Positions 7,886 to 49,603 of a stretch of 64,000 nucleotides of DNA are shown here, piece by piece (position 1 is the first letter of the stretch; each line of letters begins with the position of its first letter). Location: the NCBI GenBank assembly GCA_963829565.1, contig CAWHJC010000003.1, forward strand, positions 72,615 through 136,614, in the 5' to 3' direction. The notes beneath the pieces were generated by a model. It did no database searches. It saw only the letters and a list, made by a program, of their open reading frames with translations, and was not told the DNA's origin. This stretch comes from an uncultured Actinomycetota bacterium (GTDB lineage Bacteria > Actinomycetota > Actinomycetes > JACCUZ01). The position numbers were made by a program, and so were the translations under genes.

Positions 7886-7887
7886 CG

Positions 7888-8331: not shown

Positions 8332-8337
8332 CGCCGG

Positions 8338-9493
8338 TTAGCGGAGGCCGGCGGGCTTGGCCAGCGCGGTCTGCACCAGCCGGTCGACCAGTGCCGGGTA
8401 GTCCAGGCCCGTGGCGTCCCACATCAGCGGGAACATCGAGACGGGCGTGAAGCCCGGCATCGTGTTCACCTCGTTGACGAGCACCGAGCCGTCGCCCGGT
8501 GACGAAGAAGTCGACCCGTGCCAGGCCCTCGCAGGCCAGCGACGTCGAACGCCCGGCAGGCGAGGTCCTGCACCTCGGCGACGACGTCGTCGGGCAGGTC
8601 CGCGGGCACGATCAGGTCGGTGCCCTCGTCCGGCAGGTACTTCGCCGCGAAGTCGTAGAACTCGTGACCACCCCCGACGACGACCTCCCCGGGCACGCTG
8701 GCCTCGGGCGGTGCGCCGTCGAGCCCCTCGAGCACACCGCACTCGATCTCGCGGCCCGAGAACGGCTGCCTCGACGACGACTCGCGGGTCGTGCGACCGA
8801 GCCGTTTCGATCGCGTCGTCGAGCTCGCCGGGGACACGGACCTTGGTGATCCCGACGCTCGAACCGGCCCGCGCGGGCTTGACGAAGACCGGGTAGCCCA
8901 GCCCCGCCACCGTCTCGCGCACGGCAGCCTTGTCGGTGGCCCAGGCCCGCGGCGTCACCACGGCGTACGGCCCGACCGGCAGGCCGGCCCCCTGCAGCAG
9001 CGTCTTCGCGTGGCCCTTGTCCATGGCGGCCGCGGAGGCGAACACGCCGGAGCCGACGTACGGCACTCCGGCGAGCTCGAGGAGCCCCTGCAGGGTTCCG
9101 TCCTCGCCGTACGGGCCGTGCAGCAGCGGCAGGACGACATCGACCTCGCCGAGCTCCTCCGGCATCTTTCCCGGCTCGTAGACGGCGAGCCCGCGATGCG
9201 TCGGGTCACCGGAGAGCACGACGGCGCTGCGCCGTCGTCCGGCGACCTCGGGCACGGTCGCCGCCGGTGACGGCCGGCCGCTGCGGGTCGTCGGCGGCGA
9301 GCACCCAACGGCCCTCGCGCGAGATGCCGACCGGGACGACGTCGTAGCGGTCGCGGTCGATCGCGGCCAGGACGCTGCCGGCCGAGACGCAGGACACCGC
9401 GTGCTCCGTGCTCCGGCCACCGAAGACGACGGCGACGCGGGCTCGGCGTGGCTGCTGGTCGGGGCCGCTGGCGTCAGCAGTCTGGTCGGTCAT
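8338..9493 (-). CDS. ddl: D-alanine--D-alanine ligase, with three apparent single-base insertions
   Basis: Ddl sequence is spread over three frames. The N-terminus (RVAVVFGGRSTEHAVSCVSAGSV) runs 9493-~9262, the middle (EIECGVLEG...HEFYDFAAKYL) lies within 8466-8837, and the C-terminus (VLVNEVNTMPGFT) ends at 8338. Each junction is repaired by deleting one G or C from a G/C run. Confidence 0.85.
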
Positions 9494-9540
9494 CGCGGTC
9501 GACCCTACCGACGGCCCACCGGACCGGGATACTCGCTGCC

Positions 9541-10648
9541 ATGACCGCCGCCGGGCACCCGACCCGCCGTCCCGCACCCGGCTCTCGCCTGCCACGGTCG
9601 CCGTCTCGGCGGGCCGGCCACCCAGGCAGCCCGACGGGCCGCTGAACCCGCCCCTGGTGATGGCGTCGACCTACCACGCCGGCGGCGAGGTCGGCTACGG
9701 CAGGTACGGCAACCCCACGTGGGAGATGCTCGAGACCGCCGTCGGCGCGCTCGAGGGTGGCGTGGCCACCTCCTTCGCGTCCGGGATGGCGGCCGTCGCC
9801 GCGGTGGTCGACCTGGTGCCCGACGGTGGCGTCGTCGTCGCCGGGCCCCGGCTCGTACTACGGCACGCTCTCGTTGCTCGCCCGCCTCGAGGAGCGCGGC
9901 CGGCTGACGGTGCGCCGCGTCGACTTGACCGATCAGGTCGCCAGCGCCGAGGCGATGCAGGGCAGCGACCTGTGCTGGGCGGAGAGCCCCACCAACCCGC
10001 TGCTGCAGCTCGTCGACCTCGAGCGGCTTGCCGAGCAGACAACGGCGGCGGGCGTGGTGCTCGCGGTCGACAACACCTTCGCCACGCCGATCCTGCAGCG
10101 CCCGCTCGAGACCGGTGCCGACGTGGTGGTGCACAGCGCCACGAAGTACCTCTCCGGCCACTCCGACCTGCTGCTCGGCGTCGCCGTGGCGGGCGACGTC
10201 GGCGTGGCCGACCGCCTGGTGGAGGTGCGCAGCCGCCAGGGGTCGGTGCCCGGGACGGTGGAGGCGTGGCTCGCGCTGCGCGGGCTGCGCACGCTGCACC
10301 TGCGCGTCGAACGGGCCCAGGCCAACGCGACCGAGCTCGCGGCCAGGCTGCGCGACCACCCGAGGGTCGAGCGGGTCCACTACCCGGGGCTGGGTGCCGT
10401 CGTCAGCATCGAGCTGCGCGGCGACGTGGCGGCCAGCGGACGCCGTCACGACGGCCACGGTGCTGTGGGTGCACGCGACGAGCCTCGGCGGCGTCGAGTC
10501 CAGCCTCGAGCGCCGGCGGAAGTGGCCCGGCGAGAGCCGGGACGTCCCCGAGACGCTGCTCCGGCTGTCGGTCGGCGTCGAGGACGTCGAGGACCTCTGG
10601 GCCGACCTCGTGGACGCCCTCGGCACCCTCCCGCTGTCCGGGTCCTAG
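9541..10648 (+). CDS. PLP-dependent Cys/Met-metabolism enzyme (cystathionine gamma-synthase/lyase family), with about three frameshifts
   Basis: Shows AVSAGR...[30 protein letters not shown] (PLP-lysine region) and [13 protein letters not shown] motifs, spread over frames 9541->~9585->~9850->~10440. Convergent with gpsA, overlapping by 4 nt. Confidence 0.7.
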
Positions 10649-21654: not shown

Positions 21655-24600
21655 TCACAGCAGCCCCAGCTGGCGAGCGGCGCCCACGACGTTGCCCTTG
21701 GTCCTGTACAGGTCGATCGCCGTCAGCCGGTGCTGCCGCGCATGGGACCTGTCGCCGAGCACGGTGGCGGCCTCGGCGCAGGCGACGTGGATCGTCGCAC
21801 GGTTCGACAGAACTTCCCGGGGCAGCAGCGTCGTCCCTCTGTCCGTATGGAGCTCCGCCGCGGCCCGGTCCCCGTCGAGCGCGGCCAGCCACGCCGAGGC
21901 TGCGTTCGCCAGCGCATGGGTCATCACGTCCTCGGCGGACCCTGACCGCAGGGCCAGTCCCACCTGTGCACGGGCAGCGTCGACCCGGCCCAGGTGCAGC
22001 AAGGCGAGGGCATGCATGGCAGCGTCCGTCGAGAGCCTCCCCTGGTCGCCGCTGGCTTCGGTTTCGCGGCAGACCTGGTCGAGGAGCCGGGCCGCCTCCG
22101 GCCAGTTCTCGACATCGACCTCCGCGCAGGCGCGCACGTAGGTCACGAGCTGGTGCAGAGTTCCTCCGACCTCGCCCGCAACCCGCTCCGCGAGCTCGCG
22201 AGCATCTCTCGCCTCCCCCTCACGCCCCAGCAGGGCAGCGAACCATCCGAGGTAGGAGGCAGGGATCACCCGAGCGGTGCGGTGATCGGCCGCTTCGAGA
22301 GCTCGGCGGCACGCGACCAGACCGTCGGCTGCTGGGCAGTCCCCGAACATCAACGCCGACAGAACCTCCTGCTGATGGAACCGCGCCGCCCGGTATCGTC
22401 CGGCGAGCTCCGCGTGGGCCCCTGCAAGCTCGAACTCTCGGGCACTGTCCGCGTGGCGGGCTCCTACGTTGGCAACGTCCGCGAGTGCCTCGTGCGCGAC
22501 CGAGAGGCCGATGTGGTGGTCAGCTGCCGAGAACACCCGCAGCCCTTCGTGAGCCGCTTGACGCAAGGCCGCCAGGGATCCCGCGGGGTGGGTCAGCAGG
22601 CGGACCTGCCCCTCGAGGATGCCTGCCAGGGCGGACCAGATCGGGTCTCCCGCCTCCTCCGCGGCGGATCTCACGCTGCGGGCAAGGTCAACGGCTCCGC
22701 TGAGGTTCGACCCGGTGCGCGACCACGCGCTTGCCAGGTCAATCTGGCGCGTCCAGCGTTGCGGTCCGTCGTCGGTCCGGAGGCGCTCGGCGCGCTCGAA
22801 CAGCCCAATGGCCGCCCGGTCGTCCACGAACACCAGGCTGTCGGCGGCCGCCGCGAGGCGGTCGGCGGCCGCGCGACCCACCCTGCAGGCGGCGTCGTCG
22901 ATGGCACCGAGCTCTGCGCGCAGGAGGTAGGCGGCCTCCAGGTGACTCCCGACGAAGTCGTCGACTGGCTGGCCGTAGTTTTTCGTGTCCAGCCATCGCG
23001 CGAACTTCTCGTGCAGGTCGGCTCGCACTGCCTTGCGCAAGCGTCCGTACGAGGCGTCGTGGATCAGGACGTGCCCGAACTGCAGCGCGTCCTGCCCCGG
23101 CAGGTCCGACCTGACGGGACATACGAGCCCCGTGCGGACCAACGACGTGAGCTGGGCCGACACCATGTCCATGGGCACCGTTGAGAGCGCTGCGACCGCA
23201 GCGGGGTAAAAGACCTGACCCATGACCGACGCCGCACCCAGGAGAGCCCGCTCCTGTGCGCTGAGCCTGTCGAGACGGGCTGCCAGGACGGCGCTGATGG
23301 TGGGCGGAACGCTCAGGGAGGTCAGGTCACCGGCGAGCACCCACCCATCGCCGTCAGTGAGCAGCACGCCGTCCTCGACCAACATCATCACTAGCTGCTC
23401 GACGAACAACGGGTTACCGCCGGCTGCCTCCAGCAGCTGGGCGACGGCTCCGTCAGGGATCGCTCCGCCGAGAAGCGCCGCGGCAAGGCCGGCCACCTCG
23501 GCGTCGACCAGCGGCTCGAGCGCAGCGGTGATGGCCGCGTCGACCCCAGCACCCCAGTCGGGATGATCGTCCAGCAGCTCGGGCCGGGCGAAGACCGCGA
23601 CCAGAACCGGGCCTGCCCGGCGGCGCGCGCACACGGCCTCCAGCAGAGCCACGAACCCCGGCTCGGCCCAGTGCAAGTCGTCGATGACGAAGACCACCGG
23701 CCGGTCGCTCGACATCGCGGACAACAGCGTGGAGACGGCCCATGCGGTGTCCTCGGGAGGCCCCGGGGCGCCGCCCAGCCCGGCGAGCGGCGCGATCCGC
23801 TCCACCACGTCTGATGCGTCAGGGAGGTCGCCGAGCAACTTGGCCAAGGCGTCATGGGCCGACGGCACGGTTTCGGACCCCGACAGGCCCGCCGCCTGCC
23901 GGACAGCCTCGACGAGCGGCCAGTAGGTTACGCCCTCCCCGTAGGAGAGGCACCGCCCACGCAGCACGGTGGACTCGTGCTCCACGTTCGACACGAGCTC
24001 TGCGGCCAGCCGGGACTTTCCCATGCCGGCCGGCCCGAGCACGGTCACCAAAGCGAGCGTCCCGTGAGCCACGGCACGGTCGAACGCCAGCCGGAGAAGT
24101 GCGAGCTCCCGGGACCGCCCGATCATCGGCGCGCTCGCCGGGCGGTCACCGACCAGGTCTCGGACGCCGAGCAGCCGGTATGCGTGGACCGGCTCGTCGA
24201 TGCCCTTCAGCAGCAGGCCAGGGCGGCTCTCGACGTCGACCCGCGCGCGCACGAGCCGATGGCAGCCTGGTCCGATCAGGCACTCGCCAGGTCCGGCGAT
24301 CTGCTCCAGGCGAGCGGCGGTGTTGACACCCAGCCCCGTCGTGAACGTGCTGCCCCGGGCCGGGTCGCCGACCACTGCCTCACCGGTCTCGATGCCGAGC
24401 CGGACCAAGAGGCGCTCGCCGTGGGTCGCCTGCACCTCCCGGTCGACCGCCTCGACTGCGGCGAGGATGTCCACTGCGGCGCGGCAGGCGCGCAGCGCGT
24501 CGTCCTCGTGCGCCGCGGGCACGCCGAAGACCGCCATCACGGCGTCACCGACGAACTTGTCCACGGTCCCGCCATGCCGGGACACGACCGCACTGACTGC

Positions 24601-24819
24601 GGAGAAGTACCTCTCGATCACGCCGCGCATGGCCTCAGCGTCGAGTCGACGGCCGAGACGGGTCGACCCCGTCAGGTCGCAGAACAGGGCCGTGACCGTC
24701 TTGCGCACCTCGCCGGCGGGCTCCGACGAGGCCGTGGGCGCCCCGCACGAGGGACAGAACCGGGCGCCCCGCGGAAGCCCGCCCCCGCACTGTCGACACG
24801 TCACCACATCGGTGGTCAC
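21655..24819 (-). CDS. multidomain signalling protein: N-terminal zinc ribbon, class III adenylate/guanylate cyclase domain, AAA/STAND-like ATPase and TPR repeats
   Basis: 1054 aa. N-terminus has CRQCGG..CPSCG. The cyclase signature is ALFCDLTGST..GDAVMAVFG. The P-loop is GPAGMGKSRLAAEL. The C-terminal half is repetitive and helical (TPR-like), with no LuxR HTH. Confidence 0.7.
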   Translation of the reverse strand: MTTDVVTCRQCGGGLPRGARFCPSCGAPTASSEPAGEVRKTVTALFCDLTGSTRLGRRLDAEAMRGVIERYFSAVSAVVSRHGGTVDKFVGDAVMAVFGVPAAHEDDALRACRAAVDILAAVEAVDREVQATHGERLLVRLGIETGEAVVGDPARGSTFTTGLGVNTAARLEQIAGPGECLIGPGCHRLVRARVDVESRPGLLLKGIDEPVHAYRLLGVRDLVGDRPASAPMIGRSRELALLRLAFDRAVAHGTLALVTVLGPAGMGKSRLAAELVSNVEHESTVLRGRCLSYGEGVTYWPLVEAVRQAAGLSGSETVPSAHDALAKLLGDLPDASDVVERIAPLAGLGGAPGPPEDTAWAVSTLLSAMSSDRPVVFVIDDLHWAEPGFVALLEAVCARRRAGPVLVAVFARPELLDDHPDWGAGVDAAITAALEPLVDAEVAGLAAALLGGAIPDGAVAQLLEAAGGNPLFVEQLVMMLVEDGVLLTDGDGWVLAGDLTSLSVPPTISAVLAARLDRLSAQERALLGAASVMGQVFYPAAVAALSTVPMDMVSAQLTSLVRTGLVCPVRSDLPGQDALQFGHVLIHDASYGRLRKAVRADLHEKFARWLDTKNYGQPVDDFVGSHLEAAYLLRAELGAIDDAACRVGRAAADRLAAAADSLVFVDDRAAIGLFERAERLRTDDGPQRWTRQIDLASAWSRTGSNLSGAVDLARSVRSAAEEAGDPIWSALAGILEGQVRLLTHPAGSLAALRQAAHEGLRVFSAADHHIGLSVAHEALADVANVGARHADSAREFELAGAHAELAGRYRAARFHQQEVLSALMFGDCPAADGLVACRRALEAADHRTARVIPASYLGWFAALLGREGEARDARELAERVAGEVGGTLHQLVTYVRACAEVDVENWPEAARLLDQVCRETEASGDQGRLSTDAAMHALALLHLGRVDAARAQVGLALRSGSAEDVMTHALANAASAWLAALDGDRAAAELHTDRGTTLLPREVLSNRATIHVACAEAATVLGDRSHARQHRLTAIDLYRTKGNVVGAARQLGLL

Positions 24820-38678: not shown

Positions 38679-39530
38679 ATGGCACTGCACGAGCTCGCCG
38701 CCCGGAGGGCGGGACCCGCCCCCGCCGGGCCGCGTTCCCCTGCGGCCTGGCGCGAGCTGCTGCTGCTCGTCCTGCTGTACGTCGGGTACAGCGCCGCCCG
38801 GATGATCGGCGACGCCGACCTGGGCACGGCGACGGCGCACGCCGAGGCGCTCCTGGACGTCGAGCGCTTCCTGCACATCGACGTCGAGAGGTGGGCGAAC
38901 CGGACACTTCACGACGTACCTCTCCTGGCCGTCCTCGCGAGCTACTGGTACGCCGCCCTCCACTACCTCGTCACCCCGGCCGTGCTGTTCTACGCCTACC
39001 GCTCGGCGCCGCACGTCTACCGGCGGGCGCGCAACACCCTGGTGGCCGGCAGCGCCCTCGGGCTGGTCGGCTTCACGCTGCTCCCGATGGCGCCGCCCCG
39101 GATGCTCCCCGGCTACATCGACACGCTCTCCGCCACGTCCGGCAGCGGATGGTGGGGATCGGACGCGAGCGCCCCGAAGGGCCTCGGCGCGATGACGAAC
39201 GAGCTCGCGGCCATGCCCTCCCTGCACGTCGGCTGGGCCCTGTGGTCCACCTGGGTCGTCCTGATGCTGACCCGGAGCCCCCGGGTGCGCCGGCTGGCCG
39301 TCACCTACTCCGTGGTCACCACGGTGGTCGTCGTCGCGACCGCCAACCACTACCTGCTCGACGCGGTCGCTGGACTCGCCGTGATGGCCGTGGGGCACCG
39401 GGTCGCCACGCGCTGGGCCGACCGGGGCGAGCGCCGCGCCGCCCTGAGTCCACGGCCAGCAGGTCGTCGCGACCCGGCTGCGGACGAGTCCTACCCAGGA
39501 GCACTGACCCCTCTGGGTCGAGCAGCGTGA
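38679..39530 (+). CDS. PAP2-superfamily membrane protein (phosphatidic acid phosphatase / IPC synthase-like)
   Basis: Multi-pass membrane protein with a PAP2 motif ([10 protein letters not shown]) and a conserved HYLLD. The ATG at 38679 is divergent from ilvD. Confidence 0.7.
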
Positions 39531-39548
39531 CCTCTGCGCCGCGGCAGG

Positions 39549-40458
39549 TCAGTAGTCGGCGGTGATGACGTTGGTCAGCGGCTCCCCGGCGACGTACCGG
39601 ACGATCTGATCCTGGACCAGCTGCATCGCGCGTGGGATGAACGCCGTGGTGTTGCCTCCGACGTGCGGGCTCACCAGGACGCCCGGGCAGGACCAGAGCG
39701 GGTGGTCCTTGGGCAGCGGCTCCGGGTCGGTGACGTCGAGGGCGGCCCGCAGCCGTCCCGAGGTGACCTCGGCCATCAGGTCGTCGGTACGCACGACAGG
39801 TCCGCGCGACACGTTCACCAGCAGGGCACCGTCCCGCATCCGGGCCAGGAAGCCGGCATCGACCATCCCACGCGTCTCGTCGGTCATCGGCACGGTCAGC
39901 ACCACGACGTCGGCCTGCGGCAGCAGCGCCCGGGAGCGCCTCGAACGGCTCGACCCCGTCGCGTGCCCTGCGGGCCACGCGGCGGACGTCGCACTCGAAG
40001 CCGGCCAGCCGGCGCTCGACGGCTGCCCCCACCGAGCCGTAGCCGACGATGAGCACCGTGCGGTCGGCGAGGGCGTCGCGCCGGCCTCCGCCCCACCAGC
40101 CGCTCAGCCCGTCGCGCACGAAGTCGGGGATCCCGCGCAGGCTGGCCAGTGTCAGTGTCACCGCCAGCTCCGCGGTCGACGCGTCGTGCACGCCCCGGGC
40201 GTTGCACAGCGTGACGCCGTCGGGCATCAGGGGCCGCACGTCGTCGACGCCTGCGGTCAGCGTCTGGACCACCCGCAGGGTCGGCATCCGCGACGACAAC
40301 CGGGCCGGAGCGGAGCCGAACATGTACGGCAGGACGTAGAGCTCGACCTCACCGATGGTCGCAGGCGGGTCGCCCTCGCCGGTGTAGACGTCGACGTCCA
40401 CGCCTCCCGGCAGGTCCAGGGCAGCCGGCCAGTCCGCGTACGGCAGCCAGACCCTCAT
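39549..40458 (-). CDS. D-isomer-specific 2-hydroxyacid dehydrogenase, with a frameshift near 39900
   Basis: NAD-binding GYGSVG in the N-terminal frame. The catalytic C-terminus (LLVNVSRG...D..AL) is in the 39549..39905 frame. Its start overlaps the patatin stop (ATGA). Confidence 0.75.
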
Positions 40459-41480
40459 CCCTCGGACGCCTCGATCGCGCGGCACCGGGTGAGGTACCGC
40501 CCCCAGTCCCAGTCGCGCAGGAACGCGCCGGCCGCCTCGTGCCCGGCGAGGAGGAGCTGCTCCTGCTGCTCGTCGCTGATCCCGAAGTCGACCGGGGAGA
40601 CGCCGGAGGTGTCGACGAACACGCTGCGGGCCTGGACGCACGGGTCGTGGATGTGCTGGGCGTCGCAGGCCTCGAGCATCGTCTCCACAAGCGACAGCGC
40701 CAGCGACACGGTGCCGCGTACCTCGGTCGTCTGGACCCTGCCGTCCGGGCGCATCGACAGCCGGACACCGAACGTCGGCCACCGGGGCGGGCGCCCGTCC
40801 GTCCGGTCGAAGACGGCGACCGGGAAGTTCGACAGCACGCCCCCGTCGACGAGGGTGGACACCGAGCCGGGACCACCCGCGACCCCCGGAGAGCGCAAGG
40901 TGACCGGCTCGAAGAAGAACGGGATCGAGGCGGAGGCACGGACCGCGTCGGCGACCTCCTGCTCGTCCGGGTCGAGCCCGTAGAGCGCGTAGTCCCATGG
41001 CAGCCGGACGAACCGGTGCCGCGAGACGTCGCTGGCGGTGACCAGCAGGGAGTAGCGCTGGTCGGCGGGCAGCGAGCTGTCGTCGTCCTCAGCCCGGAGG
41101 TCGCCGAACGTCCGGACGCCGAGGTCGGCCAGGGCACCGCGGATCCACGACCGGAGGTAGTCCCCCTCGAAGACGCCACCGTCGAACGCCAGCGACAACC
41201 CGTCGACGACCCGCGCGAGCGGCCCGGCCACCCGCCCGACAGGGCCCCGGTCGCGCAACCGCGGGTAGTGCAGGGTGCGTGCGACGTCCTCGAGCCGCTC
41301 CAGCGGCTCGCCCGCCTTCTGCAGTGCCACGAGGAACGCCGCCACGACCGCGCCGGCCGACGTGCCCGCGACGCGGGGGAAGGAGTAGCCAGCCCGGGCC
41401 ATCGTCGCGACCGCACCCGCCAGCCCGATGCCCTTGACGCCGCCTCCCTCGAGGACGAGGTCGGCACGACGCGACTCCAT
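40455..41480 (-). CDS. patatin-like phospholipase
   Basis: GGGVKG oxyanion motif, GTSAG serine motif and DGG aspartate motif. Confidence 0.85.
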   Translation of the reverse strand: MESRRADLVLEGGGVKGIGLAGAVATMARAGYSFPRVAGTSAGAVVAAFLVALQKAGEPLERLEDVARTLHYPRLRDRGPVGRVAGPLARVVDGLSLAFDGGVFEGDYLRSWIRGALADLGVRTFGDLRAEDDDSSLPADQRYSLLVTASDVSRHRFVRLPWDYALYGLDPDEQEVADAVRASASIPFFFEPVTLRSPGVAGGPGSVSTLVDGGVLSNFPVAVFDRTDGRPPRWPTFGVRLSMRPDGRVQTTEVRGTVSLALSLVETMLEACDAQHIHDPCVQARSVFVDTSGVSPVDFGISDEQQEQLLLAGHEAAGAFLRDWDWGRYLTRCRAIEASEG

Positions 41481-41556: not shown

Positions 41557-42705
41557 ATGTCACCCGTGTCCCGCGCCGCCACCGTGCTCGCCCTGCTGCT
41601 GGCCCTGGCCGCCTGCAGCGGGGACGACCCGGGCGACGGCGGCGCCCGCGGCACACCGTCCGACCGGCCGAGCTCGTCCTCGCCCGACAGCGACACGACG
41701 GCGGCGGCACCCGCCACCCCGGTGGCCCGGGCCAGGGTCGATGCGGTCGTCGCCGGTGACCTCGAGGTGCCGTGGGGGTTGGCCTTCCTGCCCGACGGGT
41801 CGGCACTGGTCAGCGAGCGGGACACGGAGATCGTGCGGCTGGTGACACCGAGCCGCGAGGTCCGCGGCGTCGGACGGGTCGAGGGCGTGGACGGCGTGGG
41901 CGAGGGCGGCCTCCTCGGGCTCGCGGTCTCTCCGGAGTACGCCGAGGACAGCACCGTCTTCGCGTACTTCACGTCGGGCTCGGAGAACGTCGTGGCCCGG
42001 ATGACCTACGACGGGCAGGGCCTCTCCGGGCAGCGGACGATCCTCGACGGCATCCCGGCCGGGCCGATCCACAACGGCGGCCGGATCGCGTTCGGGCCGG
42101 ACGGCTACCTGTACGTCGGCACCGGCGAGTCCGGCAACACCGGGCTCTCCCAGGACCGCGGCTCACTCGGGGGGAAGATCCTTCGGATCACACCCGACGG
42201 CGACCCCGCACCCGGCAACCCGTTCGACGGGTCACCCGTCTACAGCCTGGGCCACCGCAACGTGCAGGGCCTGGCCTGGGACGCGCGCGGGCAGCTGTGG
42301 GCCGCGGAGTTCGGCCAGAACACCTGGGACGAGCTGAACCGGATCGAGCCGGGCGGCAACTACGGATGGCCACAGGTCGAGGGACGGTCGGGTGACGACC
42401 GGTTCATCAACCCGGTGCGCCAGTGGTCGACCGATGTGGCGTCGCCCAGCGGCATCGCGGTCGCGGCGGACTCGGTGTTCATGGCCGGGCTCCGCGGCGA
42501 GCGGTTGTGGCAGATCCCGATCCCGGACGGCAAGGCCGGCCGGCCACGGGCGATGCTGCGCGACGACTACGGCCGGCTGCGCACGGTCGCAGTCGCCCCC
42601 GACGGCTCGCTGTGGCTGAGCACGAGCAACCGCGACGGGCGGGGGAACCCGCGGGGGAACGACGACCGGATCCTCCGGCTCACCGTCGAGCCAGCGGGGT
42701 CGTGA
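41557..42705 (+). CDS. PQQ-dependent sugar dehydrogenase lipoprotein (soluble glucose/sorbosone dehydrogenase family; LppZ-like)
   Basis: Signal peptide with an LAACSG lipobox. Has a six-bladed beta-propeller SGDH signature (GLLGLA, HNGGRIAFGPDG, HRNVQGLAWD, GGNYGWP). Confidence 0.85.
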   Translation: MSPVSRAATVLALLLALAACSGDDPGDGGARGTPSDRPSSSSPDSDTTAAAPATPVARARVDAVVAGDLEVPWGLAFLPDGSALVSERDTEIVRLVTPSREVRGVGRVEGVDGVGEGGLLGLAVSPEYAEDSTVFAYFTSGSENVVARMTYDGQGLSGQRTILDGIPAGPIHNGGRIAFGPDGYLYVGTGESGNTGLSQDRGSLGGKILRITPDGDPAPGNPFDGSPVYSLGHRNVQGLAWDARGQLWAAEFGQNTWDELNRIEPGGNYGWPQVEGRSGDDRFINPVRQWSTDVASPSGIAVAADSVFMAGLRGERLWQIPIPDGKAGRPRAMLRDDYGRLRTVAVAPDGSLWLSTSNRDGRGNPRGNDDRILRLTVEPAGS

Positions 42706-43112
42706 TGGCCGCACTGGACTTCTGGGTCGGTGACTGGGACGCGAGGTGGGCGGGTGGCAGCGGGCGCAACCGGGTCACCCGGGACCTCGGTGGCCGGGTG
42801 ATCGTCGAGCGGTTCGAGGTGGCCGGTGACGAGCCCTTCGCGGGGATGAGCCTGAGCGTGCACGACCCGACATCCGGGCAGTGGCGGCAGACCTGGGCCG
42901 ACTCCAGCGGCGGCTACTGGGCCTTCGTCGGCGGCCCGCAACCCGACGGCACCTTCGTCTTCGCGACCCCGGGACCGGTTGACGCGGAGCAGGTGCTCAA
43001 GCGCATGGTCTTCTCCGACATCCGGGACGACTCCTTCGCCTGGCGCTGGGAGTTCTCCCCGGACGGCGCGGCATGGGAGCTGCGCTGGGCGATCAGCTAC
43101 ACCCGCCGTTGA
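42705..43112 (+). CDS. DUF1579-like small protein
   Basis: 135-aa ORF starting MAALDFWVGDWDARW. Its ATG overlaps the PQQ-dehydrogenase TGA. Confidence 0.45.
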   Translation: MAALDFWVGDWDARWAGGSGRNRVTRDLGGRVIVERFEVAGDEPFAGMSLSVHDPTSGQWRQTWADSSGGYWAFVGGPQPDGTFVFATPGPVDAEQVLKRMVFSDIRDDSFAWRWEFSPDGAAWELRWAISYTRR

Positions 43113-44533
43113 GGCCTCGTGGCACCAGGTCCCCTGAGATACGTCACGTGACGCGATAGGTCACCCAGCGGAGCAGGAGGTCGCCAGCTGGGCTCGTACC
43201 GGACGACCGTGACCTTCGCGTACTCGTGGTCCGCGAGGTGCACCGCCAGGACAGCTCCCGGCGGCAGGTCCGCGGGCGACAGCGGAGGGTTGGCGTCGCC
43301 CTGCGGTAGGACGCCGCGGCGAGCTGCGCCGGGGTCACGTCGGCGAACCGCGCGTCGGCGAGCACGACCGCCCCGAGCGTCGTCTCGTCGAAGATGAACA
43401 GCAGCTGAGCCGAACCGTTCCAGGCCAGCTGGCTCGACGAAGCAGGCCCACGACCCGACCCGACTGGAGATCGAGACCAGTCGTCGGGTCCGCCAACCGC
43501 GTCTCGCCTTGGGAGAGGACGCCGTCTGAGAGGGCAGGGCCGGTCGACACCGAGGCCGTCGGCGGGCTCGGCGATCCGCCGGTCGAGACACCGACCGGCT
43601 GTGGTGCTGGGATCCGTGTCGGTGGCCCAGGGGCGGCTCAGCAGGACGGCGACGAGCACGACGAGCAGGCCGAGCACCGAGGCGCCCGCGGCGGCCAGCG
43701 CGGTCCGGCCGCGAAGTCGGCGCCCATGGCGTGCTCCGGCCCGGCGAGGGTGCCGGATCACTGCGCGACGCCGGCAGGTCCGGCCCGGTGCGCGGGCTCT
43801 TCGCGATGTACAGCTCCCCCTGGAGGTTCCCGATCATGCTCGGTGTCTGATCGGGCGTCGCCTCGCGCACGATGCGGAAGACGTAGTCGTACAGCTCGTC
43901 GACCGAGACCCGACCGTCACCGTCGAGGTCCGCGTCACCGGTCCGGAGCCCGTCGAGGACTGCCCTGGTGAACAAGGACGGTGTGCCGCTGCCGGAGACC
44001 GATCCGCTGTCCGTCTCGAAGGCGTACTCCATCGCGGTCGACGCGGTGACGACGGCACGACCGCGGCCCTCGAAACGCTCCTGGATGTCGACCGTCTCGC
44101 TGGCCCGGGGCACCATCCCCCGCGCGAACGCGCCGCTGTAGCAGCAGTCGAGCAGCAGGACGATCTTCCGGGACCTGCTCTGGTCCATCCGCTCGTTGAC
44201 GAACACGGACGAGATCCCCGTGGCCGCCAGGCGGTTGAGCTTGGTGCTCGTGCTCGCGAAGTAGAGCCGGCCGCTGTCGTCCTTGATGCCGTGACACGAG
44301 AGGTAGAGCAGCAGGAGGTCGTCGCGGAGCCGGTCGTCGAAGAACGCCTCGATCTCCTCGGTGACGAGATGTGCGGCCTGGTTGACGAGGGTCCGCACCT
44401 GGAAACCGCCGATCGCCGGGTCGGCCAGCGTCGTCGCGAGCGCCTCGGCCTCCTTGGCCGGCCCCCGGAGCTGCCGCAGCGCGGGATCGTCGTAGCGGTC
44501 GCTCGCGACGATCAGCGCGAAGGACCCCGACAT
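43097..44533 (-). CDS. caspase-like (peptidase C14) protein with an EF-hand Ca2+-binding motif, a transmembrane segment and a C-terminal extracytoplasmic domain (C-terminal third has about four frameshifts)
   Basis: Catalytic His in LYLSCHGIKDD and Cys in LLLDCCYSGAF. A canonical EF-hand loop (DLDGDGRVSVDE) follows. Downstream, a transmembrane helix (LGLLVVLVAVLL) and protein-like sequence (FIFDETTLGAVVLADARF...) appear in alternating frames through 43761-43097. Confidence 0.75.
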   Translation of the reverse strand: MSGSFALIVASDRYDDPALRQLRGPAKEAEALATTLADPAIGGFQVRTLVNQAAHLVTEEIEAFFDDRLRDDLLLLYLSCHGIKDDSGRLYFASTSTKLNRLAATGISSVFVNERMDQSRSRKIVLLLDCCYSGAFARGMVPRASETVDIQERFEGRGRAVVTASTAMEYAFETDSGSVSGSGTPSLFTRAVLDGLRTGDADLDGDGRVSVDELYDYVFRIVREATPDQTPSMIGNLQGELYIAKSPRTGPDLPASRSDPAPSPGRSTPWAPTSRPDRAGRRGRLGARPARRARRRPAEPPLGHRHGSQHHSRSVSRPADRRARRRPRCRPALPSQTASSPKARRGWRTRRLVSISSRVGSWACFVEPAGLERFGSAAVHLRRDDARGGRARRRAVRRRDPGAARRGVLPQGDANPPLSPADLPPGAVLAVHLADHEYAKVTVVRYEPSWRPPAPLGDLSRHVTYLRGPGATRPQRRV

Positions 44534-44554
44534 CAGGGAAGCACCGGATCGGTC

Positions 44555-44950
44555 TCAGCCGGCATCGACCGGCGCCGCATGGCGGGCGAGCCAGGCATCG
44601 ACGAGGCGGCGCTGCTCCTCGTCCGTGGCGCCGGTGAGCTTCAGCGTGTCGCCGCCCATCTGGATCTCGACCTGCCGTCGGCTGTCCCGGCTCAGCCAGC
44701 TCTGGACGGCAGCGACCACGTGCCCCAGCGCGGAGGACTTCGCGAGGGTGAGGATCAGTCCCCCGATGGCAAGGACGTCGACCGCCTTGGTCCCGTCCGG
44801 CGCGGGGCCGGACCGGGCGAGGTCGACAGCGTCGACATCCAGCTCGAGCAGCTCCTGCCGCAGCTGCGCCGTCAGCTCGGCAACCTCCTCGACGTCCGCG
44901 TCCGAGCCGGCGCCGACCTGAACACGCACCCGTTCTGCTGCATCTCCCAT
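44555..44950 (-). CDS. EACC1/trypco1-like small protein (effector-associated constant component), co-encoded with the caspase-like gene
   Basis: 131 aa from the ATG at 44950. ELLELDVDAVDLARSGPAPDGTKAVDVLAIGGLILTLA...VQSWLSR...VEIQMGGDTLKLTGATDEEQRRLVDAWL matches the recalled consensus of effector-associated constant-component proteins found next to trypsin- and caspase-like effectors. Confidence 0.55.
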   Translation of the reverse strand: MGDAAERVRVQVGAGSDADVEEVAELTAQLRQELLELDVDAVDLARSGPAPDGTKAVDVLAIGGLILTLAKSSALGHVVAAVQSWLSRDSRRQVEIQMGGDTLKLTGATDEEQRRLVDAWLARHAAPVDAG

Positions 44951-45038
44951 CCCGACATCGTGCTCCGCGACGGGGCGGAGGGCCACTCCCCGCGCCGGGA
45001 CGCGAGGACGCGCCGGCAGCCGTCCGTAGAGTGCCGGT

Positions 45039-45780
45039 GTGGTGAGCCCGGGGCCGGTCGCGCTGGTCGGCAGCGGCGAGTACCTCCCGGTCATGGAGCC
45101 GCTGGAGCGTCGGCTGCTGGACGGCCGCCCGCCACGCTTCGTCCAGCTCGCCACCGCCGCGGCGCCGGAAGGCGTCACGTCCCTCGCCCGGTGGCACGAG
45201 CTGGGCCGAGCGTCGGCCGAGCGGCTCGGCGTCCAGCAGGTCGTGGTGCCTGTCGTCGACCGGATCAGCGCCGATGACGCGGAGCTCGCCGCACTCATCG
45301 ACGGTGCGGGCCTGGTTTACCTCTCCGGCGGCAACCCGCCGTTCCTCGCCCGGACCCTGCGCGGCACCCGGGTCTGGAACGCGATCGAGGCCGCCTGGCT
45401 GGGCGGAGCCGCGCTGGCCGGCTGCAGCGCCGGCGCGATGGCCCTCACCGGCCAGGTGCCCGACCTGCGGCACCCGCTGCGCGACGCGGAGCCGGGGCTG
45501 GGCGCGGTGCCGCGGCTGAGCGTGCTGCCCCACTTCGACCGGTTCGCGGGGCGGCTGCCCGACCTCGTCCTGACCCGGCTGTCCAACCCCCCGGACGGCG
45601 TCACCGCGGTCGGGATCGACGAGGACACCGCGCTGGTCGGGGGGCCTGACGACTGGGAGGTCGTGGGGCGCCAGTCCGTCTGGCTGCTCGGCGCGGACGG
45701 CCGGCACGAGCACCCGGCGGGCAGCGTGCTGCAGCTCCCGACCGGCGCGCTCGCACGCCTGAGCGGCCATCCGTGCGACG
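45039..45780 (+). CDS. peptidase E-like (S51 family) protein (3' end uncertain)
   Basis: VALVGSGEYLPVMEPLERRLL...LVYLSGGNPPFLARTL...AGCSAGAMAL has the S51 layout (Ser in GCSAG). The ORF runs on without a stop into the GlcG-like gene region, so a frameshift or unknown true stop is likely. Confidence 0.55.
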
Positions 45781-45909
45781 AGCCGCCGACACATGTGCGA
45801 CGGCTGAGGCGCAGGGGGCGCCGGAGCTGCCACCCCCGTCACCGCTGCATCAGTCGTGTCGGGGGGTCAGAGACCGGACAGTGTTCAGCTAAGGCGGTCC
45901 AGCATCTGC

Positions 45910-46326
45910 TCAGCCGGTCGGCGAGAAGCCTGACTTCTCGACCGCGGCGGCGCAGACGGCCTCGTCCTGCGCCCCCGTGCCGCCGCTGGCGCCGACCGCC
46001 CCGAGCAGGGTGCCGTCGCGGTAGACCGGGACAGCACCGGTCTGCGGCGTGTAGCGACCGTGCGTCATGGCCGTCAGCGCGGTCGAGAAGTTCGGCAGGC
46101 CCTCCGCCTTCTGCTTCTGCGCGTCGCTGGGCTGCCCGTAGGCCGCCGCGGTCCAGGCCTTGCCCTGTGCCACGTCGGCGCTGATCCACGGCGCGCCGTC
46201 CATGCGGGCGAACGCGACCAGGTGGCCGCCCGGGTCCATGACGGCGAAGGACATCGGGACACCGAGGTCCTCGGCGCCGGCCCGGGCGTTGGCCAGGATG
46301 CCGTTGGATTCGTCAAGAGTGAGCAT
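45910..46326 (-). CDS. GlcG/HbpS-like heme-binding protein (DUF336)
   Basis: 138-aa ORF with the typical ...[10 protein letters not shown]...A..KA.TAA......GG.P motifs. Confidence 0.7.
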
Positions 46327-46363
46327 GTCCGGGTCCTGCCCCGCGACACGGGGGACGGAAACG

Positions 46364-47889
46364 TCAGGTGCAGCGTTCGACGACGAGCTCGCGGACCCGC
46401 GCCGCGTCGGCCTTCCCGCCGGTCGCCTTCATCACGGCGCCGACGATGGCCCCGGCGGCGGCGACCTTGCCGCCGCGGATCTTCTCGGCCACGTCCGGGT
46501 TGGCGGCGAGCGCCTCGTCCACGGCGGTGACCAGCGCGCCGTCGTCGCTCACGACCGCCAGCTCGCGCGCGGCGACGACCTCGTCGGGCTCGCCTTCGCC
46601 GGCCAGGACGCCCTCGATGACCTGCCGCGCCAGCTTGTCGTTGAGGGTGCCGTCCGCGACCAGGGCGACCATCCTCGCCACCTGGGCGGGGGTCATCGGC
46701 AGCGAGGCCACGTCGATGCCGCGCTCGTTGGCGTGCCGGGCCAGCTCGCCCGTCCACCACTTGCGGGCCGCGTCCTGCGGCGCGCCGGCGGCGACCGTCT
46801 CCTCCACGAGGTCGAGCGCGCCGGCGTTGACCAGCGACTGCATCTCGAAGTCGGTCAGCGCCCACTCGGCCTGCAGCTCGCGACGCCGCTCCCAGGGCGG
46901 CGGCGGCAGCTCGGCCCGCAGGCGCTCGACCCAGGCGGGGTCCGGCGCGACGGGCACGAGATCCGGCTCCGGGAAGTAGCGGTAGTCCTCGGCCTGCTCC
47001 TTGGACCGGCCAGGCGTCGTGACACCGGTGTCCTCGTGCCAGTGCCGGGTCTCCTGCACCACGCGCTGCCCGGCGGCCAGCCGCGCTGCCTGCCGCGAGA
47101 TCTCGTGGCGCACCGCACGTTCGACCGAGCGCAGCGAGTTGACGTTCTTGGTCTCCGACCGGGTGCCCAGCGGGTCGGCCGGGACTCCGCCGCAGCGAGA
47201 CGTTGGCGTCGCAGCGGAGGGAGCCCTGCTCCATGCGTACGTCGGAGACGCCGAGGTTGCGCATCACCTCGCGCAGGGCCGTGACGTAGGCGCGGGCCAC
47301 CTCGGGCGCCAGCGCGCCGGTGCCCTCGACCGGCCGGGTGACGATCTCGATCAACGGGATGCCGGCCCGGTTGTAGTCGACCAGGGAGTAGTCGGCGCCG
47401 TGGATGCGACCGGTCGACCCGCCGACGTGCAGCGACTTCCCGGTGTCCTCCTCCATGTGGACCCGCTCGATCTCGACCCGGACCGTGCGCGTGCCGTCTG
47501 CCGTCGGGACCTCGACGTCGAGGTGCCCGTCGATGCAGATCGGCTCGTCGTACTGCGAGGTCTGGAAGTTCTTCGGCATGTCCGGGTAGAAGTAGTTCTT
47601 CCGCGCGAAGCGGCACCACGGCGCGATGTCGCAGCCGAGCGCCAGCCCCACGCGGACCGTCGACTCCACCGCCACCGCGTTGAGCACCGGCAGCGCCCCC
47701 GGCAGCCCGAGGCAGGTCGGGCACACCTGGCTGTTGGGAGCGGCGCCGAACGTCGGTCGAGCAGCCGCAGAACATCTTCGAGGCCGTGCCGAGCTCGACG
47801 TGCACCTCGAGCCCGATGACCGGGTCGAAGGCCGCTACCGCCTCGTCGTAGTCCATCAGCTCCGGCGCGAGCGCGGACCCTGCCGTCAT
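46364..47889 (-). CDS. gatB: Asp-tRNA(Asn)/Glu-tRNA(Gln) amidotransferase subunit B, with at least two frameshifts
   Basis: N-terminus ([22 protein letters not shown]) in the 47889 frame, the middle ([15 protein letters not shown]...) in the 47726 frame, and the C-terminus ([12 protein letters not shown]...GatB/YqeY domain) in the 47113 frame. Confidence 0.9.
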
Positions 47890-48080
47890 GCCTCGTCCTC
47901 GCCCCGGCGGAGTCGCCGGATGATGATGATCGTGCCGGTGACCAGGACGACGGCGTTGAGCACGGCGTCGACGAGCTCCAGGCGGTCGCCGTCCTCACGC
48001 GCCTGCCGGAGCCGGGACAGGGCGGTCCGGCCGGCCATCACAGTGCTCACGAACGTGATGACGGACTTGATGTTCTTCAC
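47886..48080 (-). CDS. small membrane protein between gatA and gatB (64 aa)
   Basis: [64 protein letters not shown] with one transmembrane helix. Its GTG overlaps the gatA TGA, and its TGA overlaps the gatB ATG. Confidence 0.5.
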
Positions 48081-49599
48081 AGCACTGCCTCCGTGGTGGC
48101 CGGGATCTCGGGTGCCTCGTCGATGAGCAGGTGGCCCCATCGGTCGGCCAGGGCGCCCTCGAGCGCGGCGCCCACGCGGTAGAGCCGCTCGTCGGCGAGC
48201 GGCGGCGCGATGACCTGGAAGCCCGACCGGCAGGCCGTCCTCGGGGGCCAGTCCGGCCGGCACCGACATCGACGCGTTGCCGGCCAGGTTCGACGGGATC
48301 GTGCACAGGTCGGCGAGGTACATCGCGAGCGGGTCGTCCACCCGCTCGCCGAGCCGGAACGCCGTCGTCGGGGTCGTCGGCGACACCAGCACGTCGGCCT
48401 GCTCGAAGGCGCGCTCGAAGTCGCGCACGATCAGCGTCCGGACCTTCTGGGCCTGCCCGTAGTAGGCGTCGTAGTAGCCGCTGGACAGCGCGTAGGTGCC
48501 CGAGCATGATGCGCCGCTTCGACCTCCGGGCCGAAGCCCGCGTCGCGGGTGAGCGCCATGACGTCCTCGGCGCTGGCCTGCGCCGTCGTCGCCGACCCGC
48601 AGCCCGTAGCGCATCCCGTCGAAGCGGGCCAGGTTGGACGATGCCTCGCTCGGCAGGATCAGGTAGTAGGCCGGCAGCGCGTAGTCGAAGCGCGGGGCAG
48701 TCGACCTCGACGACCGTCGCGCCGAGCCCCTCGAGCAGCGCCACCGACTCGTGGAACGCGCTGCTCCACACCCGCCTGGTAGCCCTCGCCGGAGAACTGC
48801 CGGACGACACCGATGCGCATGCCGCGCACGTCGGCCGGCCGGGCCGCCGCGACCACGTCCGGGACGGACTGGTCGATCGAGGTGGAGTCGAGCGGGTCGT
48901 GACCGGCGATGACGGAGTGCAGCAGCGCCGCGTCGAGGACGGTGCGGGCGCAGGGACCGGCCTGGTCGAGCGAGGACGCGAGAGCGACCAGTCCGTAGCG
49001 CGACACGCCGCCGTAGGTCGGCTTGACGCCGACCGTCCCGGTGACGGCCGCCGGCTGGCGGATCGAGCCGCCGGTGTCGGTGCCCACCGCGAGCGGGGCC
49101 TCGAACGCCGCGACCGCGGCGGCGGAGCCGCCGCCGGACCCTCCCGGGATGCGGTCGAGGTCCCACGGGTTGTGGGTCGGCCCGAACGCCGAGTGCTCGG
49201 TCGAGGACCCCATGGCGAACTCGTCCATGTTGGTCTTGCCGAGCACCACCAGGCCGGCCTCGCGCACGCCGGCGGGCCACCGTGGCGTCGTACGGCGGGA
49301 CGCCACCCCTCCAGGATGCGGGACCCGCAGGTGGTCGGCATGCCCTTGGTGGCGATGACGTCCTTGAGCGCGAGCGGTACGCCGGCGAGCGGACCGAGCC
49401 GGTCGCCCGCGGCGCGCTGAGCATCGACCCGGCGGGCGGTCTCGCGGGCGGCGTCCTCGTCGACGTGCAGGAACGCGTGCACGGCCGGGTCGACCGCCGC
49501 GGATGCGGGCCAGATGGGCGTCGGTGACCTCCACGGCGCTGGCCTCGCCGCTCGCGATGACCTCCGCCGTCTCGGCCGCGGTCAGCCGGGTCAGGTCGC

Positions 49600-49603
<4 letters not shown>
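48077..49603 (-). CDS. gatA: glutamyl-tRNA(Gln) amidotransferase subunit A, with at least three frameshifts
   Basis: Amidase-signature enzyme ([27 protein letters not shown]-like) found across frames 49603 / 49482 / 49603 / 49424. The true C-terminus ATTEAVL* ends at 48077. Confidence 0.9.

Follow-up and report, generated by a model that had tools for sequence, protein, structure and literature searches.

Two adjacent genes in the 64,000-nucleotide stretch of actinobacterial DNA that we analyzed (the window) encode a 131-aa protein of the EACC1 family and a membrane-anchored caspase. The pair is an ordinary member of System 4, a described two-gene cell-suicide module, and the earlier note on this DNA was right to place it among conflict or programmed-cell-death systems. 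We consider it probable that the pair acts in abortive infection or programmed cell death, with an external sensor causing the caspase to cut EACC1 and the cut protein forming pores.

Gene layout, neighbors and reading frame

The EACC1-family gene, whose product is a predicted latent pore-forming toxin, occupies 44555..44950 with its stop codon, and a spacer of 21 nt (44534..44554) separates that stop from the caspase ATG; all features of the pair are on the minus strand. The order is the one that System 4 requires, with the EACC1 gene 5' and the caspase gene 3', adjacent and on the same strand. Because they share a strand, lie 21 nt apart, and have no terminator-like site in the scanned interval 42600..45300, the two genes are probably one operon, in agreement with the co-transcription proposed before. 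A promoter and terminator scan of the locus found nothing and is uninformative at the window's GC content.

A 131-aa gene followed by a caspase gene recurs in contigs L001, L085, L086, and L087 with different neighbors. An adjacent EACC1 gene is not universal in this caspase clade, being absent in L082 and displaced in L083. ORFs of 78 to 81 aa upstream of the related caspases in L001 and L083 were considered as EACC1 candidates and rejected, as an HMM built from A1 did not find them EACC1-like; they look like low-complexity miscalls. An exact-sequence look-up of the 131-aa protein returned nothing on record.

The flanking genes encode a GSDH/PQQ-type dehydrogenase, a Peptidase_S51 protein, an HbpS/GlcG-like protein, and GatB, as the earlier note had named them. 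That note also described the pair as inserted into conserved core synteny, which stands in part: the module was found at none of 80 other actinobacterial gatB loci, 33 of which keep the GSDH gene downstream of gatB. However, GatB identity was 70% or less in all of these genomes, so the gatB-anchored scan reached no close relative from which an insertion could be dated, and in the one close relative, L087 (95% nucleotide identity), the S51-EACC1-caspase-GSDH order is identical. No defense genes flank the module; in PADLOC, the small protein and the S51 and GlcG-like proteins had no match and the caspase gave a weak generic caspase match (E 1.6e-8). No NTPase is encoded in the module or among the flanking genes, the nearest being an AAA_16-cyclase protein 20 kb away (21655..24819), which we rejected as a partner because no linkage was found and System 4 requires none. 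The lack of an adjacent STAND NTPase, pointed out in the earlier note, is no anomaly, as the two-gene system is self-contained.

The caspase gene cannot be read from a single frame. The ORF 43097..44533(-) is present as first reported, but its translation is out of frame after about residue 272, and the two remaining frames encode the transmembrane helix (43639..43704) and the C-terminal domain (43147..43550). Using an intact homologue that is 98% identical (P0001) as the reference, a frameshift-aware alignment called for five corrections, near 43717, 43593, 43438, 43301, and 43192. The gene in fact stops at 43144..43146 and not at 43097; in its corrected form, supported by the alignment to P0001 and a DNA alignment to L087, it spans 43144..44533(-) and encodes 460 aa plus a stop. 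The earlier call that the C-terminal frame requires resequencing was correct.

If the five frameshifts were real, the module would be a decaying pseudogene that leaves a truncated soluble caspase with neither anchor nor sensor. The distribution of indels relative to L087 speaks for this reading, as the six within the two genes are all confined to the final 530 nt of the caspase gene, with none in the 1.2 kb spanning EACC1 and the caspase domain. We nevertheless consider it highly improbable. Single-base frameshifts also affect the essential genes gatA (nine corrections) and gatB (two), whose corrected paths contain no stop codon and whose translations are highly conserved, and a 2-hydroxyacid dehydrogenase in the window is likewise split. 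Moreover, the corrected C-terminal domain of the caspase is stop-free and differs from P0001 no more than does the intact homologue P0002. Because gatA and gatB need corrections of the same kind, the five frameshifts in the caspase gene are sequencing errors and not gene decay, and the gene is most likely intact in the organism. Single-base insertion errors are numerous across the window, and apparent pseudogenes there are not to be trusted.

The EACC1-family protein and its protease

Taken as a single sequence, the 131-aa protein scores 19.7 bits against Pfam EACC1 (PF19953; E=8.8e-4; profile positions 3 to 105 of 107), below the gathering score of 23.6, and it has no NCBIfam or PADLOC match. 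Its relatives give a clearer assignment. Apart from EACC1, no Pfam family recurs in them; 32 of 62 match EACC1 (best E 8.6e-9), including P0124, which is 82% identical to the window protein. An hhalign comparison with KrEACC1, from the pair described by Evans et al. (2025, bioRxiv 10.1101/2025.11.14.688446), gave an E value of 1.1e-4 over residues 29 to 118 at a probability of only 56%. By these profile comparisons the proposed EACC1 identity holds at the family level and is marginal for the single sequence. The accompanying likeness to trypco1 did not hold: a Pfam scan at E<=0.01 gave EACC1 only, with no match to a Trypco/Pepco profile, and trypco1 belongs to a separate family (Pepco) that Evans et al. 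2025 treat as distinct from EACC1.

The AF2 model of the protein (pLDDT 78) has a disordered linker at residues 48 to 60 (pLDDT <50) that joins an N-terminal beta-alpha-beta unit to the C-terminal part, a predicted arrangement consistent with autoinhibition as Evans et al. propose it. A fold search with the monomer model returned generic ferredoxin-like matches only. Within the linker, PAPDGTKAVD (residues 49 to 58; 44777..44806(-)) is the predicted protease-accessible cleavage region, with K55 as the proposed P1 residue. All 62 sequences carry K or R at column 55, and P51 does not vary among them. In the hhalign alignment, R46 of KrEACC1 pairs with K55, and D49, the putative KrEACC1 cleavage site, pairs with A61. 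The invariant D38 (LELD) was considered as a caspase-style P1 and rejected, as it aligns near KrEACC1 V29 to D31 in the folded N-terminal part and not in the linker.

After the linker comes the glycine-containing hydrophobic segment AIGGLILTLA (44741..44770(-)). Kaur et al. (2020, PMC7159879) label this conserved segment "TM" and treat it, with its glycine or small residues, as the hallmark of EACC1. G63 is shared by 60 of the 62 sequences and L65 by all of them, as expected for System 4. Kaur et al. also gave the original model for these systems, proposed from sequence analysis on the basis of this conserved Gly-rich hydrophobic helix and the variable caspase C terminus: EACC1 would sit in the membrane as the sensor and activate the caspase, and the caspase would then cut itself, so that its variable C-terminal domain is set free to act as effector. 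We regard that model as improbable for the window pair. In the AF2 model of uncleaved EACC1 the hydrophobic segment forms part of a soluble sheet, the variable domain here is a small non-enzymatic beta-sandwich outside the membrane and an unlikely effector, and Evans et al. 2025 found EACC1 to be the substrate and its C-terminal fragment the toxin. The mechanism with EACC1 as sensor has since been superseded.

The protease that would cut EACC1 has an N-terminal, cytoplasmic caspase (C14) domain of the EACC1-associated type at residues 1 to 245 (43799..44533(-)). The profile search that had been suggested as a check found Peptidase_C14 in the ORF 43097..44533(-) with an E value of 2e-16 over the first ~245 residues, and the NCBIfam model NF047832 ("caspase, EACC1-associated type") scored 164.3 bits against a cut-off of 140 (profile positions 2 to 210 of 211). 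The His/Cys dyad read from the sequence earlier is confirmed, with H81 in an SCHG motif (44288..44299(-)) and C131 in a DCCYSG motif (44132..44149(-)), both invariant across 73 homologues. A transmembrane segment follows the caspase domain in 87 of 113 relatives, and the C-terminal regions vary as in System 4, including WD40, Kelch, lectin, PASTA, RDD, PQQ/BamB-like, and other domains.

A PDB sequence search with the family profiles found nothing significant, the best match being MALT1 (E 0.04). D129 of the caspase lies in a D-x-C motif, as does MALT1 D462, and D/E28 aligns to MALT1 D365; by this alignment the S1 pocket would be acidic, like those of MALT1 and metacaspases. Because of this predicted pocket and because residue 55 of EACC1 is K or R in every family member, we predict that EACC1 is cleaved after the basic residue K/R55. 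That prediction conflicts with the Kr cleavage site, which Evans et al. 2025 give as Asp49 and describe as putative. The activity of the caspase on EACC1 is itself assigned by homology with the studied pair.

Membrane anchor, external domain and EF-hand loop

In the corrected frames, the caspase domain is followed by a single transmembrane helix, TALAAAGASVLGLLVVLVAVLL (43639..43704(-)), which has a mean Kyte-Doolittle hydropathy of 2.69 over 19 residues and corresponds to AF2 helix 276-298 in P0001. Because the N-terminal flank of this helix is Arg rich, the caspase domain is predicted to be inside the cell and the C terminus outside. The membrane-anchored caspase with an external domain that the earlier note had described is thus present, although not in the single frame in which it was drawn.

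The extracytoplasmic C-terminal domain (~125 aa; 43147..43550(-)) has no Pfam match. In a fold search it showed an all-beta fold of the HmuY type, a beta-sandwich. The haem-ligating histidines of HmuY are conserved, whereas no invariant His or Cys occurs across 14 homologues of the window domain; the resemblance is one of fold only and not of sequence-level membership. The same rare domain also follows a transmembrane helix in TIR and CHAT proteins, and it diverges by ~8 to 10% between near-identical homologues whose caspase domains differ by 0 to 1 residue. Because it is shared in this way and diverges fast, we presume that the domain is the sensor.

What this sensor would detect bears on the purpose of the module. 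The same biochemistry could serve something other than phage defense, with the external domain responding to a developmental signal, a kin signal, or damage to the envelope, and the pair carrying out stress-induced or developmental death in a filamentous or multicellular actinobacterium. An extracytoplasmic sensor is unable to see cytoplasmic phage proteins, and the genes around the module are housekeeping ones (gatCAB, dehydrogenases), without an integrase or other defense genes in the vicinity and in an order kept in L087. EACC1 systems occur predominantly in organisms of multicellular habit, 650 of 671 according to Kaur et al. 2020, and DnaK-fused EACC1 modules suggest stress sensing (Evans et al. 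2025). On the other hand, close homologues of the pair turn up in unrelated settings, for example next to an integrase and a NERD protein, the fast-evolving sensor domain is common to TIR and CHAT effectors, and the only tested family member is phage triggered (Evans et al. 2025). We hold such a role outside phage defense to be rather unlikely.

The caspase domain also contains an EF-hand loop, D202-E213, DLDGDGRVSVDE (43895..43930(-)), between its last two helices. The loop that had been noticed earlier is sound as a motif: DLDGDGRVSVDE matches the PROSITE EF-hand pattern PS00018 exactly (residues 202 to 214), and AF2 places helix 187-198, the loop, strand 208-210, and helix 211-225 in a helix-loop-helix arrangement. 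It has 12 residues, ligands at positions 1, 3, 5, and 12, Gly at position 6, and two flanking helices. D202 is invariant, D204, D206, G207, and E213 are each at least 90% conserved, and the loop is kept in 113 of 120 relatives. The Pfam EF-hand_5 profile scored 16.8 bits on the caspase against a cut-off of 25.9 and so did not pass, and there is no second EF-hand in the caspase, only this single loop.

Conservation of the loop suggests that the protease may be responsive to Ca2+; the term "Ca2+-gated" in the earlier note goes further than the motif supports. Metacaspases bind Ca2+ via Asp clusters in the p20 and p10 regions and not via an EF-hand. Relative to these Ca2+-dependent metacaspases and to the MALT1 paracaspase, the candidate Ca2+ site of the window protein is instead a canonical EF-hand loop of 12 residues, placed between the final two helices. 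Such a loop goes without mention in the accessible text of Kaur et al. 2020 and in Evans et al. 2025. We tentatively put forward, as a rather doubtful extension, that the EF-hand is a Ca2+ switch in actinobacterial EACC1-associated caspases, by which a membrane breach would admit external Ca2+ and activate EACC1 cleavage or amplify it by feed-forward, with the external domain as a dedicated cell-surface conflict sensor. The breach might come from phage genome injection, from envelope damage reported by the HmuY-like domain, or from the first EACC1 pores. If true, the switch would be a bacterial counterpart of Ca2+-triggered metacaspase signaling with a different Ca2+ site, and the rare external domain that caspase, CHAT, and TIR proteins share would serve conflict systems as their dedicated sensor at the cell surface.

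Proposed mechanism and comparison with known systems

In the mechanism that we consider probable, a signal at the external HmuY-like domain, perhaps ligand- or damage-induced clustering, would activate the cytoplasmic caspase domain, whose conserved EF-hand loop may make it responsive to Ca2+. The activated caspase would cut EACC1 in the linker between the N-terminal autoinhibitory part and the C-terminal part, and cleavage of this 13.7-kDa protein after K55 would yield fragments of 5.7 and 8.0 kDa. The freed C-terminal fragment would then oligomerize into membrane pores and kill the cell. The cleavage and pore-forming steps are transferred from the pair of Evans et al. 2025, and by sequence this transfer spans a large evolutionary distance, because the caspase domains of the window protein and KrAvs12 share only 24% identity.

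The pair does not constitute a new class. The claim that it is not a described system in this arrangement was mistaken: EACC1-caspase pairs have been catalogued since 2020 as System 4 of Kaur et al., are covered by the curated NCBIfam model NF047832, and have a mechanism with experimental support since 2025 from a homologous pair (Evans et al. 2025). The content that is new beyond System 4 is modest, and its value lies in three testable details on a large, transmembrane-anchored actinobacterial branch that has had no prior experimental study. First, a canonical EF-hand loop, conserved as given above, suggests Ca2+ control. Second, an acidic, MALT1-like S1 pocket and an invariant K/R in the EACC1 linker predict cleavage at a basic residue, whereas the published putative site is Asp. 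Third, shuffling has placed a rare HmuY-like domain, extracytoplasmic and a candidate cell-surface sensor, on caspase, CHAT, and TIR effectors alike.

In the accessible text of Kaur et al. 2020, System 4 pairs a 5' standalone EACC1 gene with a 3' gene whose product starts with a caspase domain and varies in its C-terminal region, and it is prevalent in actinobacteria. Its caspases have transmembrane helices in at least 33% of cases, some with an extracellular domain after the helix, and an NTPase is not required. The window pair is alike in gene order, N-terminal caspase, variable C terminus, transmembrane helix with external domain, and lack of an NTPase. It differs in its HmuY-like beta-sandwich C terminus, which is not among the System 4 examples named in that text.

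The closest studied counterpart is the homologous KrEACC1-KrAvs12 pair of Ktedonobacter racemifer, in which the caspase cuts EACC1 into a pore-forming toxin, as established by toxicity, in vitro cleavage, and liposome leakage assays (Evans et al. 2025). There, cleavage in the linker before the hydrophobic segment frees the toxic, pore-forming C-terminal fragment, and the EACC1 topologies of the two pairs can be aligned. However, the Kr pair senses phage tail connector proteins through a cytoplasmic Avs12 STAND ATPase, whereas the presumed sensor in the window is a transmembrane helix with an external domain. The Asp ligands of the EF-hand loop, present in the window caspase, are missing from the Kr caspase (GDVHSRNNLSLYTL), and the cleavage site in KrEACC1 is given as Asp49 as opposed to the K55 predicted here. 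A wider analogy, drawn by Evans et al. 2025, is with gasdermins. In bacterial gasdermins paired with a caspase-like protease and in mammalian caspase-gasdermin pyroptosis, the logic is the same, in that a protease removes the autoinhibitory part of a latent pore-former, whose pores then kill the cell, but EACC1 is unrelated to gasdermin in sequence and, at 131 aa, far smaller.

The caspase gene and its membrane anchor

In this actinobacterial DNA (window G+C, ~72%), both open reading frames (ORFs) of the pair proposed in the earlier note are present on the minus strand. The longer one, 43097..44533 (478 amino acids as a single-frame translation), matches Pfam Peptidase_C14 over its first ~245 residues (E 2e-16) and scores 164.3 bits against NCBIfam NF047832, "caspase, EACC1-associated type" (curated cutoff, 140 bits). 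The catalytic dyad motifs are complete, as had been claimed: SCHG lies at 44288..44299 and DCCYSG at 44132..44149 on the minus strand, and none of H81, D129, C130, and C131 varies across 73 aligned homologues. Downstream in the protein, DLDGDGRVSVDE (43895..43930, minus strand) matches the PROSITE EF-hand pattern exactly. In an AF2 model, the last two helices of the caspase domain (187-198 and 211-225) bracket the 12 loop residues, positions 7 to 9 of which form a short strand; this predicted geometry is canonical for an EF-hand. Position 1 (D202) is invariant in the same alignment, and positions 3, 5, 6, and 12 (D204, D206, G207, and E213) are at least 90% conserved. The pattern recurs in 113 of the 120 best caspase homologues, with or without a transmembrane (TM) segment; the other seven are near-matches of the form DLDLDG. 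The loop scores 16.8 bits against Pfam EF-hand_5, below the curated cutoff of 25.9. Judging from this conservation, the EF-hand may add Ca2+ dependence to caspase activation.

The caspase domain of the ORF stands as first described; the single frame does not. Beyond about residue 272 the translation is Arg/Pro-rich and senseless, and the other two frames supply the TM helix together with a conserved C-terminal domain. Frameshift-aware alignment with the nearest caspase homologue, P0001 (metagenomic, 461 amino acids, caspase domain 98% identical), places five corrections near 43717, 43593, 43438, 43301, and 43192. The corrected caspase has 460 amino acids, with its last codon ending at 43147 and its stop at 43144..43146. 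Matching single-base indels appear in the DNA alignment to L087, the P0001 contig (95% identity). Additionally, gatB, gatA, and the 2-hydroxyacid dehydrogenase gene are each spread over several frames as consecutive Pfam profile segments. When the GatA and GatB proteins of Kitasatospora were aligned to the window, gatA called for nine single-base corrections and gatB for two, and the corrected paths contain no stop codon and are ~70 to 75% identical to the Kitasatospora proteins. After correction, the C-terminal domain differs from P0001 by ~10%. Over the same domain, intact P0002 differs from P0001 by ~8%, and the caspase domains of all three proteins are nearly identical; this divergence is therefore normal for the family. 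By these comparisons, the caspase frameshifts are best read as sequencing errors and not gene decay. Single-base insertions riddle the essential genes gatB and gatA (46074..49603) and were also noted at 39316..40998. Because the window derives from error-prone sequence, anything in it that looks like a pseudogene should be distrusted.

After frame correction, the TM helix and external domain foreseen for the caspase are both found. A Pro/Ser-rich linker leads to a single, strongly hydrophobic helix, TALAAAGASVLGLLVVLVAVLL (43639..43704, minus strand), preceded by Arg and followed by Asp. Given these flanking residues, we infer that the chain crosses the membrane once, with the caspase domain in the cytoplasm and the C terminus outside. 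Few proteins carry the C-terminal domain: 17 clusters emerged when 1.84 billion representative proteins were searched exhaustively with HMMER. Among these, the domain also follows a TIR_2 domain and TM helix (P0185 and P0191) or a CHAT protease domain and TM helix (P0188 to P0190), and in further proteins it comes after an N-terminal TM helix and before TPR repeats. P0195 and P0196 were likewise noted as carriers. These architectures suggest an extracytoplasmic sensor module common to several death-type effectors, and a sensor role would fit a domain that is shuffled among such effectors and diverges fast.

The small EACC1-family protein

The ORF at 44555..44950 (minus strand) encodes 131 amino acids. 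Alone, its product matches Pfam EACC1 over nearly the whole profile with 19.7 bits (E 8.8e-4), below the threshold of 23.6 bits, and NCBIfam and PADLOC searches gave no match. Its relatives settle, at family level, the EACC1 assignment made in the earlier note: EACC1 is matched by 32 of the 62 family sequences (the protein and 61 relatives; best E 8.6e-9), with no second recurrent Pfam family among them. The suggested trypco1 likeness did not hold, since no Pepco match was found. The EACC1 that Evans et al. studied experimentally, from Ktedonobacter racemifer (KrEACC1; sequence as given in their supplement), was compared with the family profile by hhalign, which gave E 1.1e-4 and a probability of 56%.

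The AF2 model (pLDDT 78) has an N-terminal beta-alpha-beta unit and a C-terminal beta-alpha-beta-beta-alpha unit, separated by a disordered linker at residues 48 to 60 (pLDDT below 50). In this model, AIGGLILTLA, the hydrophobic segment that contains Gly, forms a buried strand; G63 is kept in 60 and L65 in all of the 62 sequences. Within the linker, P51 is invariant and position 55 is basic in 62/62 sequences.

Genomic context and relatives

As the earlier note had it, Peptidase_S51 and HbpS/GlcG-like genes flank the pair, on the gatB side; a DUF1579-like gene and a GSDH-type dehydrogenase gene lie on the other. The S51 ORF (45039..46184, plus strand) matches its Pfam profile over residues 63 to 200 only and then extends over the HbpS/GlcG-like gene (45910..46326), which runs in the opposite direction; the long tail of the S51 ORF is probably a further frame artefact. 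Insertion into conserved core synteny was borne out in one respect. A GatB-fragment scan of one genome per species gave 80 actinobacterial loci, all at ≤70% identity, and in none were caspase, EACC1, S51, GlcG-like, or DUF1579-like genes found within 10 kb. The GSDH gene lies downstream of gatB in 33 of the 80. The gatB-GSDH interval is thus variable, and the module lies outside the widespread arrangement. One of these loci (L056) encodes a protein 61% identical to the product of 40455..41480 (minus strand), a 341-amino-acid ORF whose translation contains the patatin-like motifs GGGVKG and GTSAG.

The order S51-EACC1-caspase-GSDH recurs in metagenomic L087 (95% identical). A 429-nt segment (42704..43132) carrying the 131-amino-acid DUF1579-like gene (~42717..43112; Pfam E 5e-4, below threshold) is missing there, the caspase stop lying 6 nt from the GSDH gene end, and it is a recent presence/absence polymorphism immediately beside the module. 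Homologous pairs with 75 to 89% caspase identity occupy unrelated neighbourhoods; hence the two genes move together. In contig L001 (5667..11425), the 75%-identical pair adjoins a second, EACC1-less caspase gene (497 amino acids), a phage-type integrase, an HTH_17 protein, and a NERD protein, a setting that resembles a mobile element or a defence island; in L085 and L086, the neighbours are a SpoIIE phosphatase and a cation-efflux gene. G+C dips at most slightly over the caspase domain (0.69 versus 0.72 to 0.77).

Other pairings occur among relatives. In Actinosynnema (L083), a clear EACC1-family gene (9436..9804, minus strand; 122 amino acids, E 3e-31 to the A1 profile used to find such genes) has as its 3' partner not a caspase gene but a membrane GT2-like glycosyltransferase gene (7743..9401, minus strand). 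Convergent with this pair is a Kelch-bearing caspase gene of the EACC1 type, whose 3' end the pair overlaps, and a TIR protein gene lies 3 kb away; L084 has the same arrangement. In L082 (3302..7962), the gene for a related TM caspase (P0082, 653 amino acids) lacks an upstream EACC1 gene and is preceded by one for a CBM6-GSDH fusion protein, so EACC1 pairing is not universal in this clade. No link to the module was found for the proposed NTPase partner at 21655..24819 (minus strand; 1,054 amino acids), which carries a weakly matched zinc ribbon, an adenylate/guanylate cyclase domain, and AAA_16.

Comparison with the known EACC1-caspase system

The arrangement, which the earlier note took to be undescribed, is System 4 of Kaur et al. 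2020 (PMC7159879), in which an EACC1 gene lies 5' of a gene for an N-terminal caspase domain followed by one of ~50 alternative C-terminal domains. At least 33% of these caspases have TM helices, in some cases followed by an extracellular domain; the system is common in actinobacteria and needs no NTPase. In the K. racemifer EACC1-caspase-Avs12 system (Evans et al. 2025, bioRxiv 10.1101/2025.11.14.688446), toxicity depends both on EACC1 and on the catalytic Cys of the protease, which splits EACC1 in two; only the C-terminal fragment is toxic, and cleaved EACC1 permeabilises liposomes. By sequence, then, the pair belongs to a system that has been described and whose mechanism has been explained. 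What could be read from the sequence here is the family assignment of both proteins, the adjacency of their genes, the complete dyad, and, from the flanking residues of the helix, the likely topology.

By transfer from Evans et al., the caspase would cut EACC1 within its linker and the freed C-terminal fragment would form pores. Our own proposal is that the external domain would control activation of the cytoplasmic protease. The S1 pocket appears acidic by comparison with MALT1: D129 lies in a D-x-C motif like MALT1 D462 and its metacaspase equivalents, and D/E28 aligns with MALT1 D365. Given this pocket, P51, and the basic residue 55, a cut is predicted after K55, which would give fragments of 5.7 and 8.0 kDa. 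K55 aligns with KrEACC1 R46 (hhalign); the published putative site, D49, is three residues farther downstream.

Neither EF-hand nor calcium is mentioned in the text of either paper. At the corresponding position, the K. racemifer caspase is missing the Asp ligands. What remains of interest is the rare HmuY-like external domain that TIR and CHAT effectors also carry, the predicted basic-P1 cleavage site of EACC1, and the conserved EF-hand loop.
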